Of a DNA stretch of 64,000 nt, positions 50,289 to 63,468 are shown piece after piece. The stretch is from the NCBI GenBank assembly GCA_964408485.1, contig CAYOZJ010000003.1, positions 65,290 to 129,289 on the forward strand. Direction: 5' to 3'. Under the pieces are notes generated by a model. That model saw nothing but the letters and a program-made list of their open reading frames with translations, made no database searches and was not told the origin of the DNA. This DNA is from an uncultured Gammaproteobacteria bacterium. GTDB lineage: Bacteria; Patescibacteriota; Microgenomatia; Levybacterales; UBA12049. The position numbers were made by a program, and so were the translations under genes. Each line of letters begins with the position of its first letter. The first letter of the stretch is position 1.

Positions 50289-50325
50289 AGTTTTATTGCA
50301 TAACCAGGCGCAGGATTGTGTCTAG

Positions 50326-50398
50326 AGCCGATGGTGAGGATCGAACTCACTACCTACGCTTTACGAAAGCGCCGCTCTGCCAATTGAGCTACATCGGC
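50326..50398 (-). tRNA. tRNA-Thr (anticodon CGT); CCA not encoded
   Basis: Minus-strand fold: acceptor GCCGATG/CATCGGC, D-arm GCTC-AATTGGCA-GAGC, anticodon arm GCGCT-TTCGTAA-AGCGT, T-arm GTGAG-TTCGATC-CTCAC. Confidence 0.85.
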
Positions 50399-50456
50399 AC
50401 TTTCTTATTATATAGTATTCTACTTTTAAGATCATGTCTAGATTTTTATCTTACTC

Positions 50457-51211
50457 CCGATATGCATACCTATTCCATCTCCGAAGTGGATTAGGTTGAC
50501 ACATCGGGAATTTGATGTTTAGCTAAAGTCATGCCATATAGACAAACGGTTTTGGCAACTGGAGAGTTTTACCATATTTTTAATAGAGGTGTAGCAAGGA
50601 TGCCAACTTTTGTTACCTCTCGGGATTATAGTAGGTTTACTCAAGCACTCCAGTATTATATGAATGCGAATGCCAAACCAAAGTTCTCTGCTGCACACGA
50701 ACTATCTATTTTACATTCAGCAACAAAAAATTTAATTGATATTATTGCGTATTGTCTGATGCCAAATCATTTTCATCTATTGTTAAAACAAAAGACTGAG
50801 AATGGAATCTCTCAATATATGAAAAATATTAGCATAAGTTATACAAAATATTTCAACATTAAAAATGATAGAGTAGGTCCATTGTTTCAAGGTGCATTTA
50901 AGGCTGTTCGTATTGAAACAACTGAGCAGTTACTTCATGTGCATAGGTATATTCACATAAATCCAACAGTTGGTTTTGTAACGAAATCCTTAGAGGATTA
51001 TCCATGGTCGTCATTCCATGAGTATGCAAAGAGGAAAATTGGTTTTTGTGAGAAAGAGCTAATTCTAAGTAATTTTTCAAATCCTAAACAATATCGACAG
51101 TTTCTTTTGGATCAGGAAGATTATGGAAAACAACTTAAAGGTATACAGCATCTTCTCCTTGATCTAGAGAAATAATTCCGATGTGCGAAGCTGTTCCATC
51201 TCCGAAGTGGA
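50457..51211 (+). mobile_element. IS200/IS605-family-like minimal element: Y1 (HUH) transposase flanked by 34-bp imperfect direct repeats, each with a TTCCA-TCTCCGAAG-TGGAA hairpin
   Basis: Left repeat 50457-50490 ccgatatgcatacctattccatctccgaagtgga; right repeat 51178-51211 ccgatgtgcgaagctgttccatctccgaagtgga; both in the same orientation, as expected for IS200 left and right ends. Confidence 0.6.
50531..51175 (+). CDS. tnpA: IS200-like / REP-associated tyrosine (Y1, HUH) transposase
   Basis: HUH motif CLMPNHFHLLL, catalytic-Tyr region HVHRYIHINP, and the YPWSS motif typical of the RAYT/COG1943 group. Confidence 0.75.
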   Translation: MPYRQTVLATGEFYHIFNRGVARMPTFVTSRDYSRFTQALQYYMNANAKPKFSAAHELSILHSATKNLIDIIAYCLMPNHFHLLLKQKTENGISQYMKNISISYTKYFNIKNDRVGPLFQGAFKAVRIETTEQLLHVHRYIHINPTVGFVTKSLEDYPWSSFHEYAKRKIGFCEKELILSNFSNPKQYRQFLLDQEDYGKQLKGIQHLLLDLEK

Positions 51212-51288: not shown

Positions 51289-53823
51289 TTGACAACATTT
51301 CATAAATATTTATATGCTGGATATATGAGTGTAGGAGGACCAGGAAGAGGAGCAGGACCAGAGGCAGCAGGAGCTCCAGTACATGAAATACAAAAAAAAC
51401 CAAAGAGGACTTTTGGTGAAAATGTAGCACAAGGTATTGCAAGATTTGCAAAGCTTCATACTGTTCACAGAATAGGGGAAGTTGCTGGTAGGAATCTTCG
51501 TGGTGTAGCATCCAATGGACAAGAAAGAAACATAGAGGATGCATTACTTGTCTCTCCGAGACTTAATACGATGTGGAGAAATTTTCAAGAAAGATTTGGA
51601 GTTGGAGCAGCAAGACTCGGTGGTGTAGATATTGTTTATAAAGGACAAGGCCAGGAAGCATTTAAAGTTGATTATACGACCCCTGATGTGTTGCCTAAAA
51701 ATGCAACACCAGAGCAACAGCAAGATCATAGAATGCGTTCTGTCTTTAGGGATGTTGCTATGGCTGCAGATAGAGTAGGTGCAGCGGAGATAGCAGCAAT
51801 GATGCCAGACGAAGAACAGAGAACAAGAGGGCACGAGAGGCAGGAACATAGGATAGAAAGAGAGCATCCTGATCTTTGGGTTGGTCAGGATAGAAATGGG
51901 TACGTAATGGAAGTTTTGCGCTATGATTCTGATAAAGCAAGCGATCATGTAAGGCTTAACCCCAACACTGGGCAACCTGAATTTTTTGTTAGCGGTCAGG
52001 TTGAAGATAAGGTTGATCCTACGGTAACACGTGTTTCTATAGCAAAGTATAGATATGTTCCAGGTGTTTATGATGCAACGACTGGCCGTTGGACAGATAG
52101 ACTTGTTAGGTTTGGAGATGAAAATACTCCTGAAAATGATTTATTAAATAGAGATGCCTCTCGTGGGCAATTAAATGTTTCTTCAGAGCAGCATATGCGA
52201 TTTGTAAACTCCATGGCTTCTCGGCTTGCATCTGATTCTACAGACATAGCAGCTCTTCAGGCAGCGTATGGAATTTCGGGAAATGTAGCGACGTATATAG
52301 AGGCAGTACAAGGTGGGGGTGACGCAACGCTTCGAGGTCAATCTGATGAGCAAGTAAGACAAAGGATGCAGCAGCGAATTTCTAATGAAAGAGCAGAGAA
52401 TCTTAATGATTTTGATGAATCAGGTCATAAAGTTGTACTTTTAAGAGGATTAGGATCTGTAGAGTCGGGTAGAATGCAGGAACAAGATGCATTACGAATT
52501 AATGGTATTGACTTGCCTAGAAATACAATGACAACGCATAGAGAAACGATTGAAGGTAGAGAATATGCTGTTGCTCAAGAAGATAAGCAGCTTAGTCCGC
52601 GAACAGCCCAATTACTCAGAGAACTTCCAACAGAATATGCGAGGCAAAAGTATATGGCAGAATTTGGAGAAGAACTCGATCCAGAATCCGGTGAACAGCT
52701 AACAAGAGTAAGAATAGTAGAGACAAGATTTCCAGATGGATCCGCAGAAGCAGAACAAGATGGTAATTTGCATGCACGGCTGAATACAGAAAATGAATTA
52801 AATAGAGAGCACGAGCGTGCAATTATTAGAGGAAGTTTTGATGAAGTACCATCGAGTGCTCTAAAAGATCCTGCAGTGAACTTACTTTTCCTTGCTCCTC
52901 ATAATGCAGATGGTCGAATTCCTGGTACACTTAATAGTCTAAGACAAGCAGACGCGGCAATTAGGGGAATTGAAGAAAGAATTGCAAATAGGCCAACAGG
53001 TCAAAATAGTCCAACAGAATTCGCGTATGCGATGCAGTTATATGAATCAATTCTTTTGGATGGCGCAGAAGGAACAAGTGTTAACAGGAGTGCATTAGAA
53101 GGTTTTGTTATGCGTCAGGGTCATATGAGAGATGCTGGAGAAGTTTTGGCATATGTTAGAGAAAGACAATTAGATCAAGATGGAGAAGAAAGACTATCTG
53201 ATGTAGCAACGGACTTGATACAACAATTGAGTGGTGTTAGGAGCATTAGACCGGAGGATGTACAAATTGATGTAGCAAGAAGACTTGTTGATATTGTTGC
53301 AGAGAGCGGCGATTTGGATTTAAAAGCTCAATTAGATCAATTATACAGTACAGCGGATTTAAATGGCATTGATAGAGATTTGGTAAGAAGACTGAATGAA
53401 GCTTTTCCTCCAGTTATTAATAATCCTTTGGAATTTGCCCCTAGGTATGCTGCAGCTCTTGGGAATCCAGAGTTGGCGAGTCAACTGCTTAATGAATTTG
53501 GACCTGGTCTTCCGGAACAAATGAGAGCAGCTTTGCAGGAAGCAACACGTGCTAATCCAACAACAGATGAGATTGCAGCAGTAAGAACAGTTCAGGATGC
53601 AGCTAATTTACATGCACGTTATGAGCATATGACTGAGTCAGCAGCAATGTTGGTTGATTCTCGTCCTGCTACGGTTACACCGGCCGAGAGTTTCCAGAGA
53701 GCAGTTGAACCTTTACAGTCTATATTACCATCATTAACTCAAATGGCAGCAATGATAACAGCATTAACCAGTCAGCAAGCGAATAATGGGAATAATGGAA
53801 ATGGCTCAACAAACACTCCTTAG
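51289..53823 (+). CDS. large (844 aa) hypothetical soluble protein, highly charged, with no recognisable domain
   Basis: Long ORF with higher GC than its neighbours; TTG at 51289 and the first ATG at 51322; no TM or signal peptide; ends in an Asn/Gly-rich tail. Confidence 0.55.
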   Translation: MTTFHKYLYAGYMSVGGPGRGAGPEAAGAPVHEIQKKPKRTFGENVAQGIARFAKLHTVHRIGEVAGRNLRGVASNGQERNIEDALLVSPRLNTMWRNFQERFGVGAARLGGVDIVYKGQGQEAFKVDYTTPDVLPKNATPEQQQDHRMRSVFRDVAMAADRVGAAEIAAMMPDEEQRTRGHERQEHRIEREHPDLWVGQDRNGYVMEVLRYDSDKASDHVRLNPNTGQPEFFVSGQVEDKVDPTVTRVSIAKYRYVPGVYDATTGRWTDRLVRFGDENTPENDLLNRDASRGQLNVSSEQHMRFVNSMASRLASDSTDIAALQAAYGISGNVATYIEAVQGGGDATLRGQSDEQVRQRMQQRISNERAENLNDFDESGHKVVLLRGLGSVESGRMQEQDALRINGIDLPRNTMTTHRETIEGREYAVAQEDKQLSPRTAQLLRELPTEYARQKYMAEFGEELDPESGEQLTRVRIVETRFPDGSAEAEQDGNLHARLNTENELNREHERAIIRGSFDEVPSSALKDPAVNLLFLAPHNADGRIPGTLNSLRQADAAIRGIEERIANRPTGQNSPTEFAYAMQLYESILLDGAEGTSVNRSALEGFVMRQGHMRDAGEVLAYVRERQLDQDGEERLSDVATDLIQQLSGVRSIRPEDVQIDVARRLVDIVAESGDLDLKAQLDQLYSTADLNGIDRDLVRRLNEAFPPVINNPLEFAPRYAAALGNPELASQLLNEFGPGLPEQMRAALQEATRANPTTDEIAAVRTVQDAANLHARYEHMTESAAMLVDSRPATVTPAESFQRAVEPLQSILPSLTQMAAMITALTSQQANNGNNGNGSTNTP

Positions 53824-53856: not shown

Positions 53857-53862
53857 TATAAT
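53857..53862 (+). promoter_or_regulatory. -10 TATAAT 6 nt upstream of the dus ATG (leaderless layout)
   Basis: tagTATAATtgtacaATG. Confidence 0.35.
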
Positions 53863-53868
53863 TGTACA

Positions 53869-54987
53869 ATGCAAAATCTTTGGCAGACACTTCCTAAGCC
53901 TATTTTTTCTTTGGCTCCGATGGAGGATGTAACAGATACTGTCCTTCGCCAAATCTTTTGTATTACTGGTAAGCCAGATGTTTTCTTTACAGAGTTTACT
54001 AATGTCGATGGAATACAGTCTCAGGGTCACGACGTTGTTGCAAGGCGCCTTCAATTTACTAATACCGAACATCCAATCGTTGCACAGATTTGGGGTATGA
54101 TTCCGGAGAATTTTTATAAGACAGCAAAAGACTTAGTAGAAAGAGGATTTGATGGAATAGATATAAATATGGGGTGTCCCCAGCATGATGTAACAAGTCA
54201 TGGTGCATGTAGTGCGCTTATTAAAAATCCTTCCCTTGCTCAGGAAATAATCCAGGCCACAAAAGAGGGAGCCCATTCGACAAGTTCAGAACAAACACAA
54301 AACTTACCCGTTAGTGTTAAGACAAGAATTGGATTTAAAACAATTGCAACAGATGAATGGATAGGATTTTTACTCGGGCAAAAATTGAGTCTTATTACTG
54401 TTCATGGTCGTACAGCGGCAGAAATGTCTAAAGTTCCGGCTCATTGGGATGAAATTGGCAATGCTGTAAGGTTGAGAGATGAATTTGAAAAGAAAAACGC
54501 CCTCACCCTTGACCCTCCCGCGCTTGTCAAGCAAGCAGCCTCCCTCACTTCGTTCAGTCCGGCCCCAGAGGGCGAGGGAAAACATGGTAGTGCTTTGCAC
54601 ACACTAATAATGGGCAATGGAGATGTGCAAAGCTTAGAGGAAGCAAAAGAAAAAATTGCCACATATCATGTTGATGGCGTTATGATAGGTCGTGGAATAT
54701 TCCATAACCCATGGATTTTTGCAGGAATTGATCCCAAGACCAAATCGCTTCAGGAAAGACTTGAATTACTTAAGACTCATGTTGCGCTGTATCAAAAAAC
54801 ATGGGGAGCACAAAAATCATTCCAGATCTTAAAGAAATATTTTAAAGTGTACCTATCAGACTTTGATGGAGCAAATGAAATGAGGCAGCAATTTATGAAT
54901 ACTAACTCTTATGAGGAAGCTCTTTCCCTTGCTGACAAGTTCCTTTTGTCATCCCGGACTGCGCTGCTTCGGGGAAGCAAGTACTGA
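53869..54987 (+). CDS. dus: tRNA-dihydrouridine synthase (Dus) carrying an in-frame insertion of about 39 aa
   Basis: LAPMEDVTDTVLRQI, GIDINMGCPQ, GNGDV and GVMIGRG motifs; the inserted segment FEKKNALTLDPPALVKQAASLTSFSPAPEGEGKHGSALH is encoded by repeat copy R4. Confidence 0.85.
   Translation: MQNLWQTLPKPIFSLAPMEDVTDTVLRQIFCITGKPDVFFTEFTNVDGIQSQGHDVVARRLQFTNTEHPIVAQIWGMIPENFYKTAKDLVERGFDGIDINMGCPQHDVTSHGACSALIKNPSLAQEIIQATKEGAHSTSSEQTQNLPVSVKTRIGFKTIATDEWIGFLLGQKLSLITVHGRTAAEMSKVPAHWDEIGNAVRLRDEFEKKNALTLDPPALVKQAASLTSFSPAPEGEGKHGSALHTLIMGNGDVQSLEEAKEKIATYHVDGVMIGRGIFHNPWIFAGIDPKTKSLQERLELLKTHVALYQKTWGAQKSFQILKKYFKVYLSDFDGANEMRQQFMNTNSYEEALSLADKFLLSSRTALLRGSKY
54497..54580. repeat. palindromic repeat copy R4, in-frame inside dus
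   Basis: gccctcacccttgaccctcccgcgcttgtcaagcaagcagcctccctcacttcgttcagtccggccccagagggcgaggg has outer inverted arms CCCTCACCC/GGGCGAGGG and shares cttcacttcgtt(c/t)ag with copies R5 and R6. Confidence 0.55.
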
Positions 54988-55900: not shown

Positions 55901-55957
55901 GTCATTCTGGCTTGTCCAGAATCTAGATCCTGGATGCGCTACGCTTACCAGGATGAC
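55901..55957. repeat. MITE-like repeat copy R7, immediately 3' of lexA
   Basis: gtcattctggcttgtccagaatctagatcctggatgcgctacgcttaccaggatgac: two hairpins (attctgg/ccagaat and atcctgg/ccaggat) and GTCAT/ATGAC termini; the first 37 nt are identical to R8. Confidence 0.7.
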
Positions 55958-56545: not shown

Positions 56546-56561
56546 TAGTACGATCGTACTA
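56546..56561. promoter_or_regulatory. perfect 16-bp palindrome TAGTACGATCGTACTA, 15-30 nt upstream of the lexA start codon; candidate LexA operator (SOS box)
   Basis: Seen directly; an AGTAC-N4-GTACT architecture similar to the GTAC-type LexA boxes known in some phyla. Confidence 0.45.
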
Positions 56562-56574
56562 ACCAGTCAAGAGA

Positions 56575-56937
56575 TCAGAAGGTATCAAAACGTCGTCTAC
56601 GAGGACGAAGAGTTCGCTCAGGTTGTTTTTGGCCTCTGTCATAATGTTGTCTCAGTGTTTTAGAATCATTTGAATTGCCTATCATTTCTCCAACATGATG
56701 TTGAGTTAATTCGTCTGCACCCCTAAGGACAACAGAATCAAGTAAGGGAAATGGTCTTGACAAGACAGACTCTTTTGTTGCTTCATCGGGTCGTTGTATG
56801 TTCTCTGCAATAGAAGCACCTGGCATGCCTCGGGGTGAGGGTTCTAGGATGAGCGCGGTTTCATCTGGGGAAAAATCGTCAAGTGTTTTTCTCTGAACCA
56901 CTTTCCCAGCGCGCAATGTTACTTCTTCTTCAACCAT
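56575..56937 (-). CDS. hypothetical protein upstream of and co-oriented with lexA
   Basis: 120-aa ORF; TATAAT 7 nt upstream of its ATG (minus-strand -10 at 56945-56950); basic C-terminus RPRRRRFDTF. Confidence 0.35.
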   Translation of the reverse strand: MVEEEVTLRAGKVVQRKTLDDFSPDETALILEPSPRGMPGASIAENIQRPDEATKESVLSRPFPLLDSVVLRGADELTQHHVGEMIGNSNDSKTLRQHYDRGQKQPERTLRPRRRRFDTF

Positions 56938-57337
56938 GGGATCAATTATATCCCATAGAAATGTATTTTAAAATATGGTAAAATTTTCCTATGGCAGGAA
57001 GAGCAGATAGATCCCAGTGGTGCGGCAATGCAGTATGCCCATTTCCCGATAGAGGACCATGTGCACTTCGTAATGTAATGCAGCACCCAACACAAGGAGG
57101 ACCGGATGAAAGGCAAAGTTTGAGGCGTATGTTGGGTCCTAAATGTAAAATAATTGATGAGGTGGACAGAGATTTTCCACAGTTTAAACCAACTCAATAA
57201 TTGGACTCTTTTCATATATTTTTTATTACAGTGCAAGCACTTCCTGAATAGTATCTGCGGAGCAGATTCAAAAAGTAAAAGTCTGCCCTGGCGCTTTGCG
57301 ATTGGCAAAGCCAGACTTATTTTAGTATCATTGTTAC

Positions 57338-58039
57338 ATGTTAAAAGACAGACCAGTAACAACACTTTTTCTTCTCCAATCTGTTGATGGGAAGATATCT
57401 ACAGGAGATGTAGACGAGCGTGATGTAGATAAAGACTTCTCCAAAATCCCTGTTGTGAAAGATGGATTGTATCAATACTACGAGATAGAGAGTCATACAG
57501 ACAGGGTTTCGCTTAACACAGGGCGAGTTATGGCAAAAGTAGGGGTGAATACCCGAATAACAGAACCTAAGAAAATGAGTGTGGATTTTGTGATAATCGA
57601 TAGTAAGCCACATCTCACAGAAAAAGGTGTTGAATATCTGGCAAAGTGGGTAAAGACATTGTATTTAGTGACGACGAATAAAAATCATCCAGCATTTACC
57701 GTTCAAAATAAGTACAAAAACCTTACTTCTATCCTTTTTGATAAAGAGATTAACCTGTTTAGTTTACTTGTTGAGTTAAAACAAAAGCACGGTGTAAAAC
57801 GCATTACTATCCAATCTGGTGGAACACTTAATGCCTCTTGGATACGAGAAGGTCTTATTGATAGAGTAAAAATTGTTGTTGCGCCGTGTCTAATTGGAGG
57901 AGGTAATACCCAAAGTCTTATTGGTGGAGAATCGCTCAGGACAGAGGAGGATTTGAAAAAGATAAAATCACTTGAGCTGCTCACTATTAGAAAATTAAAA
58001 CATTCATACCTTGAGGTAATCTATAAGATAGTAAATTAG
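57338..58039 (+). CDS. dihydrofolate reductase-family protein (RibD C-terminal reductase domain)
   Basis: LFLLQSVDGKIS...ITIQSGGTLNASWIREGLIDRVKIVVAPCLIGGG matches the RibD_C pattern. Confidence 0.65.
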   Translation: MLKDRPVTTLFLLQSVDGKISTGDVDERDVDKDFSKIPVVKDGLYQYYEIESHTDRVSLNTGRVMAKVGVNTRITEPKKMSVDFVIIDSKPHLTEKGVEYLAKWVKTLYLVTTNKNHPAFTVQNKYKNLTSILFDKEINLFSLLVELKQKHGVKRITIQSGGTLNASWIREGLIDRVKIVVAPCLIGGGNTQSLIGGESLRTEEDLKKIKSLELLTIRKLKHSYLEVIYKIVN

Positions 58040-58113
58040 ATTGTTCTTTTGCTATCCCCAATATCATAATATACTCTTTGACAATTAGGCTTGTAGTATG
58101 ATACTATTCTCAA

Positions 58114-58536
58114 ATGCCTCATTTTGATGGACCATGTAATTGTGTTGCAGAGAAAGTAAATTCACAGGGTGGTCCTCGTGTCCGAATACGATGTGCAAAG
58201 GGATTGAGTGTTAGTGAGGATGTACTCCCTTTTCTGGCTATCCTTAGTGATGAACCTGATATAAAGCCAGAAGAGCTTGCTCAAAGAACAGGTTTTTCTA
58301 CACTGAAGATAAGTTCTTTGCTTTCTGCTGCCAAAAAGGCAAGTAGTGTGCCCCCAGGAGACAGAAAAGGATATGATCCTACTCAAAGCTTTGGAAAAGC
58401 AAGTATTTCTCTTGCAAGAAGATTAGAGCGATGTGGAATAGTGGAGAATGGACAAATTGCGCAACCTGTAAGAACAGCGATTGAATCTGCACGAAATGGG
58501 CCTAATAAAACACCTCAAGGGGAAAGAAGAAAATAA
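58114..58536 (+). CDS. hypothetical protein (possible HTH)
   Basis: 140-aa ORF; EELAQRTGFSTLKISSLLSAAKK is helix-turn-helix-like; no other motif. Confidence 0.3.
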   Translation: MPHFDGPCNCVAEKVNSQGGPRVRIRCAKGLSVSEDVLPFLAILSDEPDIKPEELAQRTGFSTLKISSLLSAAKKASSVPPGDRKGYDPTQSFGKASISLARRLERCGIVENGQIAQPVRTAIESARNGPNKTPQGERRK

Positions 58537-63390: not shown

Positions 63391-63399
63391 ACTTAAAGT

Positions 63400-63468
63400 G
63401 TCATTCTGGCTTGTCCAGAATCTAGATCCTGGATGCCTCCACGCTTCGCTCTGAGTTACCAGGATGAC
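63400..63468. repeat. MITE-like repeat copy R8, in the atpF-atpH intergenic region
   Basis: gtcattctggcttgtccagaatctagatcctggatgcctccacgcttcgctctgagttaccaggatgac is near-identical to R7, with an extra cacgcttcgctctgag segment. Confidence 0.7.

Follow-up and report, generated by a model that had tools for sequence, protein, structure and literature searches.

What is a protein of 832 residues, resembling nothing described, doing between a transposase gene and a housekeeping gene, and did it arrive with the transposase? The question is raised by a 64,000-nt stretch of DNA (contig CAYOZJ010000003.1 of assembly GCA_964408485.1, from an uncultured bacterium assigned to the Patescibacteriota), called here the window, whose numbering supplies all coordinates given without a contig name. 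The protein of the open reading frame (ORF) under study is called X, and the window's own version of it W. I will argue that X is a resident chromosomal gene, that it fills a fixed slot between the gene for tRNA-Thr(CGU) and dus, which encodes a tRNA-dihydrouridine synthase, that its locus is hyper-polymorphic with sharp borders at these two genes, and that the transposase is the newcomer. What X does is a harder matter. I give about an even chance to the idea that it is an interaction protein of an episymbiont, under diversifying selection and facing either the host cell or phages.

The first step is to establish the gene. The ORF 51289..53823 (+) was confirmed, and it encodes 844 aa if read from TTG. 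An initial annotation, made from the letters of the window, ranked it as the largest ORF after one other, and it is indeed the second-longest, behind an ORF of 951 aa. X is a real gene and a chance ORF is ruled out, because an open frame of 2.5 kb is very improbable at 41% GC and because a frame of 687-846 codons has been kept at the locus in six other lineages despite saturating divergence. The start had been left ambiguous between TTG at 51289 and ATG at 51322. The TTG is there, as the first half of a TTGACA -35 hexamer; the codon at 51322 is TAT, and the in-frame ATG lies at 51325. The true start is most likely this ATG, giving 832 aa, the same form that is found in the database (protein P0001).

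The relatives of X came to light through its neighbours. A search with Dus led to two loci (L001 and L002). The lexA-like gene further downstream belongs to a cluster at 90% identity with 18 members, which supplied further contigs, some of them ending short of X. Gene order is identical wherever the slot is covered: glycosyltransferases, PMT_2, Wzy_C, an Ig-domain protein, tRNA-Thr(CGU), a large ORF without a Pfam match, dus, NUDIX, lexA and then the genes for ATP synthase. The order tRNA-Thr, X, dus holds in all seven of the lineages that cover the slot, six of them without a transposase. The counterparts of X measure 690 aa in L002, 687 in L098, 839 in L100, 846 in L101/L102, 800 in L104 and more than 460 in L001, where the gene is truncated. 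In the window, dus starts 45 nt after the stop codon of X. Soil is the source of those contigs for which one is named. No similar ORF lies upstream of dus in the more remote dus loci (L003-L097, Dus no more than 53% identical), and the X family appears, as far as is visible, to be confined to a narrow clade.

This conserved slot bears on the suggestion, made in the initial annotation, that X is horizontally acquired cargo. X does adjoin both a tRNA gene and a Y1 transposase gene, and its GC content is above that of the latter. Synteny contradicts the suggestion: the transposase gene is absent from the slot in L002, L098, L100, L101/L102, L104 and L001, all of which have the slot filled nonetheless. 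Direct repeats of 39 nt (50452-50490 and 51173-51211), each carrying the hairpin TTCCATCTCCGAAGTGGA and found in only two copies in the 64 kb, enclose the transposase gene alone and leave X outside. The gap from the tRNA gene to the start of X is 926 nt in the window and 153 nt in L002, a difference that corresponds to an insertion of about 770 nt. The transposase itself (214 aa) has as its best model the REP-associated tyrosine transposase (RAYT) NF047646, at 53.8 bits, where the cut-off is 80. Genomic islands usually integrate at the 3' end of a tRNA gene, and X lies on the 5' side of tRNA-Thr. Collections of phages, plasmids and viruses have no match to X. Because the relatives lack the transposase, because the repeats enclose nothing else, and because the gap is 926 nt as against 153 nt, the transposase is a recent insertion in front of a resident X. 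The notion that X came in beside the tRNA gene together with an element like those of the IS200 group of insertion sequences (IS) has next to no probability. The tRNA-to-X spacer of L100 holds, in place of the transposase, an 81-aa ORF of the GIY-YIG type (L100 7897-8142); the spacer seems to attract selfish elements.

The base composition of X tells the same story. X had been described as richer in GC than the AT-rich island beside it. At 41.6% it does exceed the transposase gene (33%) and the window (37.4%), and it equals dus (42%). The GC surplus lies wholly in codon positions 1 and 2 (GC1, GC2 and GC3, the fractions at the three positions, are 0.59, 0.43 and 0.23), and 0.23 is the minimum of GC3 in the window. 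AGA is the main codon for arginine (45 of 78). Since GC3 is so low and AGA so prominent, the codon usage of X is native, contrary to what cargo would lead one to expect; what is odd about X is its amino-acid composition. It contains 10.6% A, 9.4% R, 8.5% E, 6.5% D, 6.1% Q and 1.8% K, with no Cys, three Trp and a net charge of -32. Its ratio R/(R+K) is 0.83, as compared to 0.13-0.70 in all other ORFs of the window. The richness in Arg, Glu, Asp, Gln and Ala and the Asn/Gly tail (QQANNGNNGNGSTNTP) noted at the outset are borne out by these values.

How different, then, are the occupants of the slot? Among the seven lineages, identity is 87-98% for LexA, 75-93% for Dus and 67-92% for the Ig-domain protein; for X it is at the level of shuffled sequences. 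When the DNA of the window is compared by blastn with L001 and L002, similarity of 66-80% extends up to 50298 and resumes at about 53850, and between these points only the promoter of X is similar. In the pair L098/L104, nucleotide identity is 85-100% in the flanks and drops to that of unrelated sequences exactly over X and the spacer upstream of it. These comparisons show a hyper-polymorphic locus with sharp borders at tRNA-Thr and dus. Moreover, similarity between alleles does not follow similarity between flanks. L101 is closest to L098 and L104 by its flanks (Dus 84%), and its X has no detectable similarity to theirs; W comes from a genome further removed (Dus 79-80%), yet W does match them. 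Where stability of the allele can be checked it is found: L101 and L102, from two samples, carry an X that is nucleotide-identical throughout.

The nature of this divergence can be judged from synonymous sites. In L098/L104 the synonymous divergence (dS, by the method of Nei and Gojobori) is 0.04 in the half of wzy far from X, a value taken from 150 codons, and rises to 0.22 in the near half and 0.29 in the Ig gene; on the other side of X, dus has 0.36 and lexA 0.35. Within X, the two stretches that align best show a proportion of synonymous differences (pS) of 0.69, equivalent to a saturated dS of about 1.9, and a nonsynonymous divergence (dN) of 0.69. X is about 30% identical in this pair although the far flank differs by a dS of 0.04, a hint that more than one allele may co-exist in a population. 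The NUDIX gene (L098 5794-6378, L104 1552-2136) has a dS of 0.83, more than twice that of dus and lexA on either side, and because it exceeds both neighbours, divergence in the flank is a mosaic.

It might be supposed that X is a cytoplasmic protein, disordered or loosely helical, whose function depends on composition only (a scaffold, a hydrophilin-like protectant or a nucleic-acid chaperone), and that its sequence drifts freely. Such a protein would keep its composition and lose its sequence, as X has; residues that promote disorder are enriched and aromatic residues and Cys depleted, the confidence of structure prediction is very low, and export signals are absent from all seven members. 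Drift, however, cannot exceed the neutral rate, and a dS of 0.04-0.36 in the flanks stands against one of about 1.9 in even the best-aligned stretches of X. Divergence that climbs in the flanking genes towards X is likewise unexpected if drift is confined to X, and the collinear motifs and beta-rich module described below have been kept. I consider a protein of this kind unlikely. Because the divergence of X goes far beyond the neutral divergence of its surroundings, relaxed constraint by itself is insufficient to explain it.

Nor would positive selection on amino acids suffice, since it leaves dS unraised, and for that reason the alleles of X would have to be much older than the genomic background in which they now stand. 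The rise of flank dS towards X points, for its part, to recombination of old alleles with breakpoints scattered through the flanks. Could the divergence instead have been made in place, by a mutator such as a diversity-generating retroelement (DGR)? DGRs are common in Patescibacteria, and the divergence is sharply bordered at X and its upstream region. A mutator would nonetheless have to account for variation that covers 2.5 kb with many insertions and deletions rather than a short C-terminal region, for alleles that are nucleotide-identical in two samples, and for flanking genes whose dS is raised as well. Over the 64-kb window no stretch of X longer than 24 nt recurs as a template-like copy, and X contains no repeats other than tiny ones in its two tails. 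No reverse transcriptase was found among the 16 window ORFs scanned against Pfam. Mutation in place is very improbable. Old allelic lineages swapped by recombination appear to fit these comparisons better than either drift or hypermutation in place.

All this presumes that the occupants of the slot are versions of one gene, and with identities so low the presumption needs support. One kind of support is composition: relative to a background of 17,617 residues from the window, R (2.2x), E (1.9x) and A (1.6x) are over-represented in the family and F, Y, W, I and K under-represented, and its 5154 residues include no Cys where 35 would be expected. The promoter, conserved as far as the ATG and described below, also speaks for one family. 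Another is a set of motifs that are collinear in an alignment of the seven sequences: A[HR]xMG[VI], a beta-rich stretch ending in TGxxxF, L[RK]IxGI[DN], DPA-h-x-L-h (found in six of the seven) and L..h..MYP.E. No overall significance was reached in a test for 12-residue motifs common to the seven. Pairwise semi-global alignment scores lie above those of shuffled sequences in 21 of 21 pairs, with a mean z of 3.6 (7.7 for W-L104, 4.2 for W-L098), and controls with reversed sequences centre on 0.05 (Wilcoxon p 3e-6).

Searches with phmmer --max restricted to the seven connect W with L104 (1.5e-4) and with L098 (4.8e-4), L100 with L001 (8e-5) and with L098 (5e-4), and L098 with L104 (5e-16). At ordinary thresholds L098 and L104 are the only members that BLASTP connects, over two collinear stretches at 29-33% identity (E 3e-10 and 8e-10). 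When jackhmmer was run against 2302 decoy ORFs, it linked L098 and L104 alone. I conclude that the positional counterparts constitute one homologous family, with a caveat for L101. Only two columns of the alignment are invariant among the seven, D515 and L577.

Outside the slot the family seems to have no kin. W had been called a soluble orphan without a recognizable motif, and the description holds: it lacks a hydrophobic segment that could serve as transmembrane helix or signal peptide (Kyte-Doolittle means over 19 residues peak at 1.11, and the N-terminal 30 residues are hydrophilic), and there is no usable match to it in Pfam, NCBIfam, PDB by sequence, PHROGs or PADLOC. Running all seven members against the same libraries, and the alignment of the seven (A4) against PDB as a profile, gave weak, isolated matches, each in one member; PADLOC gave a single such match to the 844-aa form (E 0.008) and none common to two members. 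A word-indexed search of 5.8 billion proteins, with W, with its L002 counterpart and with a profile of three sequences, returned only the query. No match to X came from back-translated scans of genomic, metagenomic and viral contigs or from tblastn against phages and plasmids.

An exhaustive phmmer search of 1.84 billion representatives gave one further match, P0002, at an E-value of 5e-8. This is a lipoprotein of 2009 aa with about 25 copies of a 74-aa helical repeat, and the E-value sums 21 weak stretches. I discount it as a relative of X: the score is inflated by repeats, and P0002 "hits" unrelated Pfam families in the same way without any stretch passing the threshold. As judged by sequence, then, the X family has no described relative, and no credible one among the 1.84 billion representatives. 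The initial annotation had named membership of a housekeeping family present in all relatives as what would refute its reading, and the outcome is mixed: X occurs in every close relative whose contig spans the slot, and it belongs to no housekeeping family. An apparent orphan can be a core gene, conserved in position, whose homologues are invisible even to a search of 1.8 billion proteins.

What kind of function calls for such diversity? Bacterial loci with patterns like this one nearly always encode molecules that an antagonist recognizes: flagellin, S-layer proteins, O-antigen, M protein, coagulase. X is favoured as an interaction protein because loci of this type typically encode what an antagonist or partner recognizes directly. 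On the scheme I propose, very old allelic lineages of X would persist in the population, homologous recombination in the conserved flanks would move them between genomes, and diversifying, negative frequency-dependent selection would maintain them. X would either bypass Sec on its way to where it acts, or work within the cell, directly sensing a foreign protein or being targeted by it. Its role is most likely one of binding or structure and not of catalysis, a catalytic site being improbable because D515 and L577 alone are invariant in the seven aligned sequences.

If X acts inside the cell, it may serve in defence against phages, as a sensor or decoy to which a phage protein binds directly and with which that protein co-evolves. 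Defence proteins that recognize their targets directly diversify fast, and X is hyper-variable, lacks an export signal and shares its stretch of the genome with a second fast-evolving ORF, a small one. Against this, no NTPase, nuclease, TIR, protease or other effector domain was found in any member, and no consistent PADLOC match. X has no partner gene either, with the conserved dus following 45 nt downstream, and its slot always holds one family, unlike defence hotspots, which house unrelated systems. I regard the sensor or decoy as distinctly unlikely.

If X acts outside the cell, it may be a bacteriocin resembling colicins or pyocins, or a translocated toxin, that leaves the producer without a signal peptide and acts against host or competitor cells. 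It has the general look of one, being large, hydrophilic, strongly diversified and free of Cys and signal peptide, with a polar, Gly-rich N-terminus. What is missing is an adjoining immunity or lysis gene and a recognizable cytotoxic domain, and the variation runs over the full length, the N-terminal part being as variable as the rest, instead of being gathered in a C-terminal module. Control by the SOS response is also not to be expected, because the putative LexA operator occurs at lexA and not at X. This operator is a perfect palindrome, TAGTACGATCGTACTA, at 56546-56561, between the -35 and -10 hexamers of the lexA promoter; ten related loci have kept it, and it probably serves the clade as LexA operator. 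The 64-kb window has a single copy of it, at lexA, and none at X. A bacteriocin or toxin is quite improbable.

Several facts weigh against the interaction protein that I favour. None of the seven members has a signal peptide, a transmembrane helix, a lipobox or a known anchoring domain. The genes around X serve envelope glycosylation and housekeeping. AlphaFold2 (AF2), run once on the single sequence and once on an alignment of five, reached a confidence (pLDDT) of 38 each time. Most pairs of family members are significantly similar only in restricted comparisons, with firmness at the scale of a database confined to L098-L104, and L101 is tied in by position, promoter, composition and one short motif only. 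The dS gradient comes from one contig pair, and its lowest value from 150 codons. Finally, the hyper-polymorphism of the window's allele is deduced from relatives, the collections holding no close relative of the window genome. The proposal that X is a host-interaction or effector candidate, made in the initial annotation, gains indirect support from the extreme divergence of the alleles and is weakened by the want of a recognizable export signal: the secretion signal it suggested seeking at the termini is recognizable neither in X nor in the other members.

The interaction protein could be given a more specific form. A type IV secretion system of the monoderm type is widespread in Patescibacteria (PMC12102498). 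X might be the determinant of strain specificity in these episymbionts, a contact protein or translocated protein exported without Sec, for example by such a system, whose ancient alleles are kept by hosts or phages through negative frequency-dependent selection; the avoidance of Cys, and in part of Lys, might then come from existence outside the producing cell or from evasion of covalent tagging in the recipient. I offer this elaboration as doubtful.

It would matter if something of the sort were true. What determines the attachment of Patescibacteria episymbionts to their hosts, and their attack by phages, is largely unknown, and candidates are hard to pick from among hypothetical proteins. 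X is a concrete and testable one: a single gene in a fixed slot that is easily amplified, with alleles almost wholly different between very similar genomes. Should the pattern hold in population data, X could be used as a strain marker and as an entry point to host range and phage sensitivity.

The promoter of X contrasts with the gene that it serves. The sequence TTGACA, 18 nt, TATGCT, 6-9 nt, ATG is kept in W, L002, L098 and L101, and L100 has it too, but its -10 is weaker; this conservation ends at the start codon, and the coding sequence is not conserved. The -10 hexamer of X ends 6 nt upstream of ATG 51325. The same geometry, a -10 exactly 6 nt before ATG and no Shine-Dalgarno sequence, is seen in X (51313-51327) and in dus (53857-53871), and in six relatives dus is preceded by TAGTATAAT, 6-7 nt, ATG. 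The mRNA of X is probably leaderless or nearly so. Because dus shares the geometry (TATAAT, 6 nt, ATG), leaderless transcripts seem usual in the organism, and the relatives suggest that they are common in the clade.

As to the protein itself, AF2 models of such low confidence are usable for the tendency of secondary structure only and not for comparing folds. Both runs place an unstructured, polar stretch at the N-terminus, a beta-rich module around residues 181-263 and many short helices in the C-terminal half, and X is accordingly predicted to be mostly alpha-helical with one beta-rich module. The strands of the module appear in both runs at low confidence. The module is the best-conserved stretch between W and L098 (30% over 93 aa by BLASTP, E 0.001), and the same stretch also aligns L098 with L104. 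The N-terminal segment holds a short 6/12-nt repeat, and the relatives' versions of X start with comparable polar segments (MPEG... is an example). Coordinates of these and the neighbouring features are collected in Table 1.

Table 1. Features of the X locus, in window coordinates.
Feature	Position	Strand	Basis or remark
tRNA-Thr(CGU), conserved left border	50325..50398	-	same tRNA adjoins X in L002
RAYT/IS200-like insertion	50452..51211	+	Y1 transposase gene 50531-51175 within 39-nt direct repeats
X promoter, sigma-70-like	51289..51318	+	TTGACA, 18 nt, TATGCT; consensus scan, 10/12 matches
X coding sequence	51325..53823	+	832 aa + stop; member of a clade-restricted, hyper-divergent family
N-terminal segment, polar, Gly/Pro/Ala-rich (MSVGGPGRGAGPEAAGAPVHEIQKKPKR)	51325..51408	+	no Sec, Tat or lipoprotein signal
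Motif GAARLGGVDIVYK	51604..51642	+	seven-sequence alignment A4; matches relatives' A[HR]xMG[VI]
Predicted beta-rich module, residues 181-263, includes VRLNPNTGQPEFF	51865..52113	+	BLASTP; AF2 strands
Motif LRINGID	52492..52512	+	LKINGID in L001, LRITGIN in L101, LHIEGID in L100
Motif FDEVPSSALKDPAVNLLFLAP	52837..52899	+	alignment; contains D515, invariant
C-terminal half, predicted all-alpha, about 12-14 helices of 10-35 residues	52900..53772	+	DSSP of both AF2 models
Polar Asn/Gly/Ser/Thr tail (QQANNGNNGNGSTNTP)	53773..53820	+	relatives end in short polar S/T/N/P-rich tails
Weak hairpin GCCTTATCTTCATTTAAGGC past the stop codon	53830..53849	+	dus promoter directly after (TATAAT 53857-53862, 6 nt, ATG 53869)
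dus (tRNA-dihydrouridine synthase), conserved right border	53869..54987	+	Pfam Dus, E 4.5e-49; 75-82% identical to relatives' Dus

The neighbourhood downstream of X has peculiarities of its own. The window's Dus is 372 aa long as compared to 317-337 aa in relatives, with about 39 extra residues (around LDPPALVKQAASLTSFSPAPEGEGKHGS) at 54481-54597, and blastn alignments of dus to L001 and L002 break at this segment. A 120-aa ORF just upstream of lexA (56575-56937, -) is fast-evolving, rich in Arg (11.7%) and free of Cys. It has no match in Pfam or NCBIfam, and its counterparts in L098 and L104 are 44% identical as against 98% for the adjacent LexA. A second variable segment lies between lexA and the ATP synthase genes (56590-58528). 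In the window it includes a gene with a RibD_C domain (57338-58039); it has no positional counterpart in L001 or L002, and other relatives carry a methyltransferase, His_Phos_1 and NUDIX there. An element of 40-57 nt occurs downstream of lexA (55901-55957) and again between atpA and atpF (63397-63436), and the sequence following lexA in L001 (2663-2721) matches it in inverted orientation. Probably it is a shared terminator of palindromic form, or else a small repeat element.

It remains to set X beside systems that are better understood. Colicins and S-type pyocins are hydrophilic, diversifying proteins without signal peptide or Cys and with a Gly-rich, disordered N-terminus. X shares the want of a signal peptide, the hydrophilicity, the absence of Cys, the Gly-rich N-terminus and the diversification, and differs in lacking an immunity gene, a lysis gene, a LexA box and a recognizable killing domain, and in variation that is not restricted to one module. 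Polymorphic toxins of the LXG, Rhs and CdiA kinds are no better a match: the N-terminal part of X is variable, and the gene downstream is dus and not an immunity gene. A DGR alters a short C-terminal region at positions templated by adenine, and it needs a template repeat and a reverse transcriptase. The variable proteins of DGRs in Patescibacteria are like X in undergoing targeted diversification of a presumed interaction protein within the same phylum. In X, unlike these targets, the whole gene differs, and the window contains no template copy. X thus fails the tests applied to it as the cargo of an IS, as the target of a DGR, as a polymorphic toxin or colicin, and as a known defence protein.

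Some proteins that bind host molecules offer a different comparison. Streptococcal M protein (PMC2749438), pneumococcal PspA and staphylocoagulase are hyper-variable, charged, helical proteins of this kind from Gram-positive bacteria. Like X, they are hydrophilic, rich in charge, predicted to be mostly helical, poor in Cys and strongly diversified into alleles. Unlike X, they have Sec signals, often LPXTG or choline-binding anchors, and conserved C-terminal parts. In ectosymbiotic Nanoarchaeota the densest non-synonymous variation was found in hypothetical proteins, which the authors link to the interface with the host (PMC6142677). Those organisms are ectosymbionts with small genomes, and the enrichment of variation reported for their hypothetical and surface proteins is comparable to what is seen in X; there the external candidates were chosen by an N-terminal transmembrane helix and vary at the level of single nucleotides (PMC6142677), whereas X has no such helix and its alleles have diverged beyond alignment.

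X presents no new principle; it is a candidate specificity determinant in a phylum where none is known. In its divergence, far above that of its flanks, and in the rise of flank dS seen in the one pair compared, it has the marks of an antigen locus, though an export or anchoring signal is wanting. The S-layer cassette slpA of Clostridioides difficile and the alleles of fliC that specify H antigens in E. coli and Salmonella are single-gene antigen loci replaced by recombination. Each of them, unlike X, encodes its own signal peptide or a dedicated export signal together with conserved domains for anchoring or polymerization; X has neither and varies over its full length. What they share with X is a fixed slot between conserved flanks, alleles that diverge far above the background, and divergence that spills over into the flanking genes, indicating that recombination breakpoints fall there. 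X behaves as such a recombination-replaced antigen locus does, which is not to call it a member of either family.

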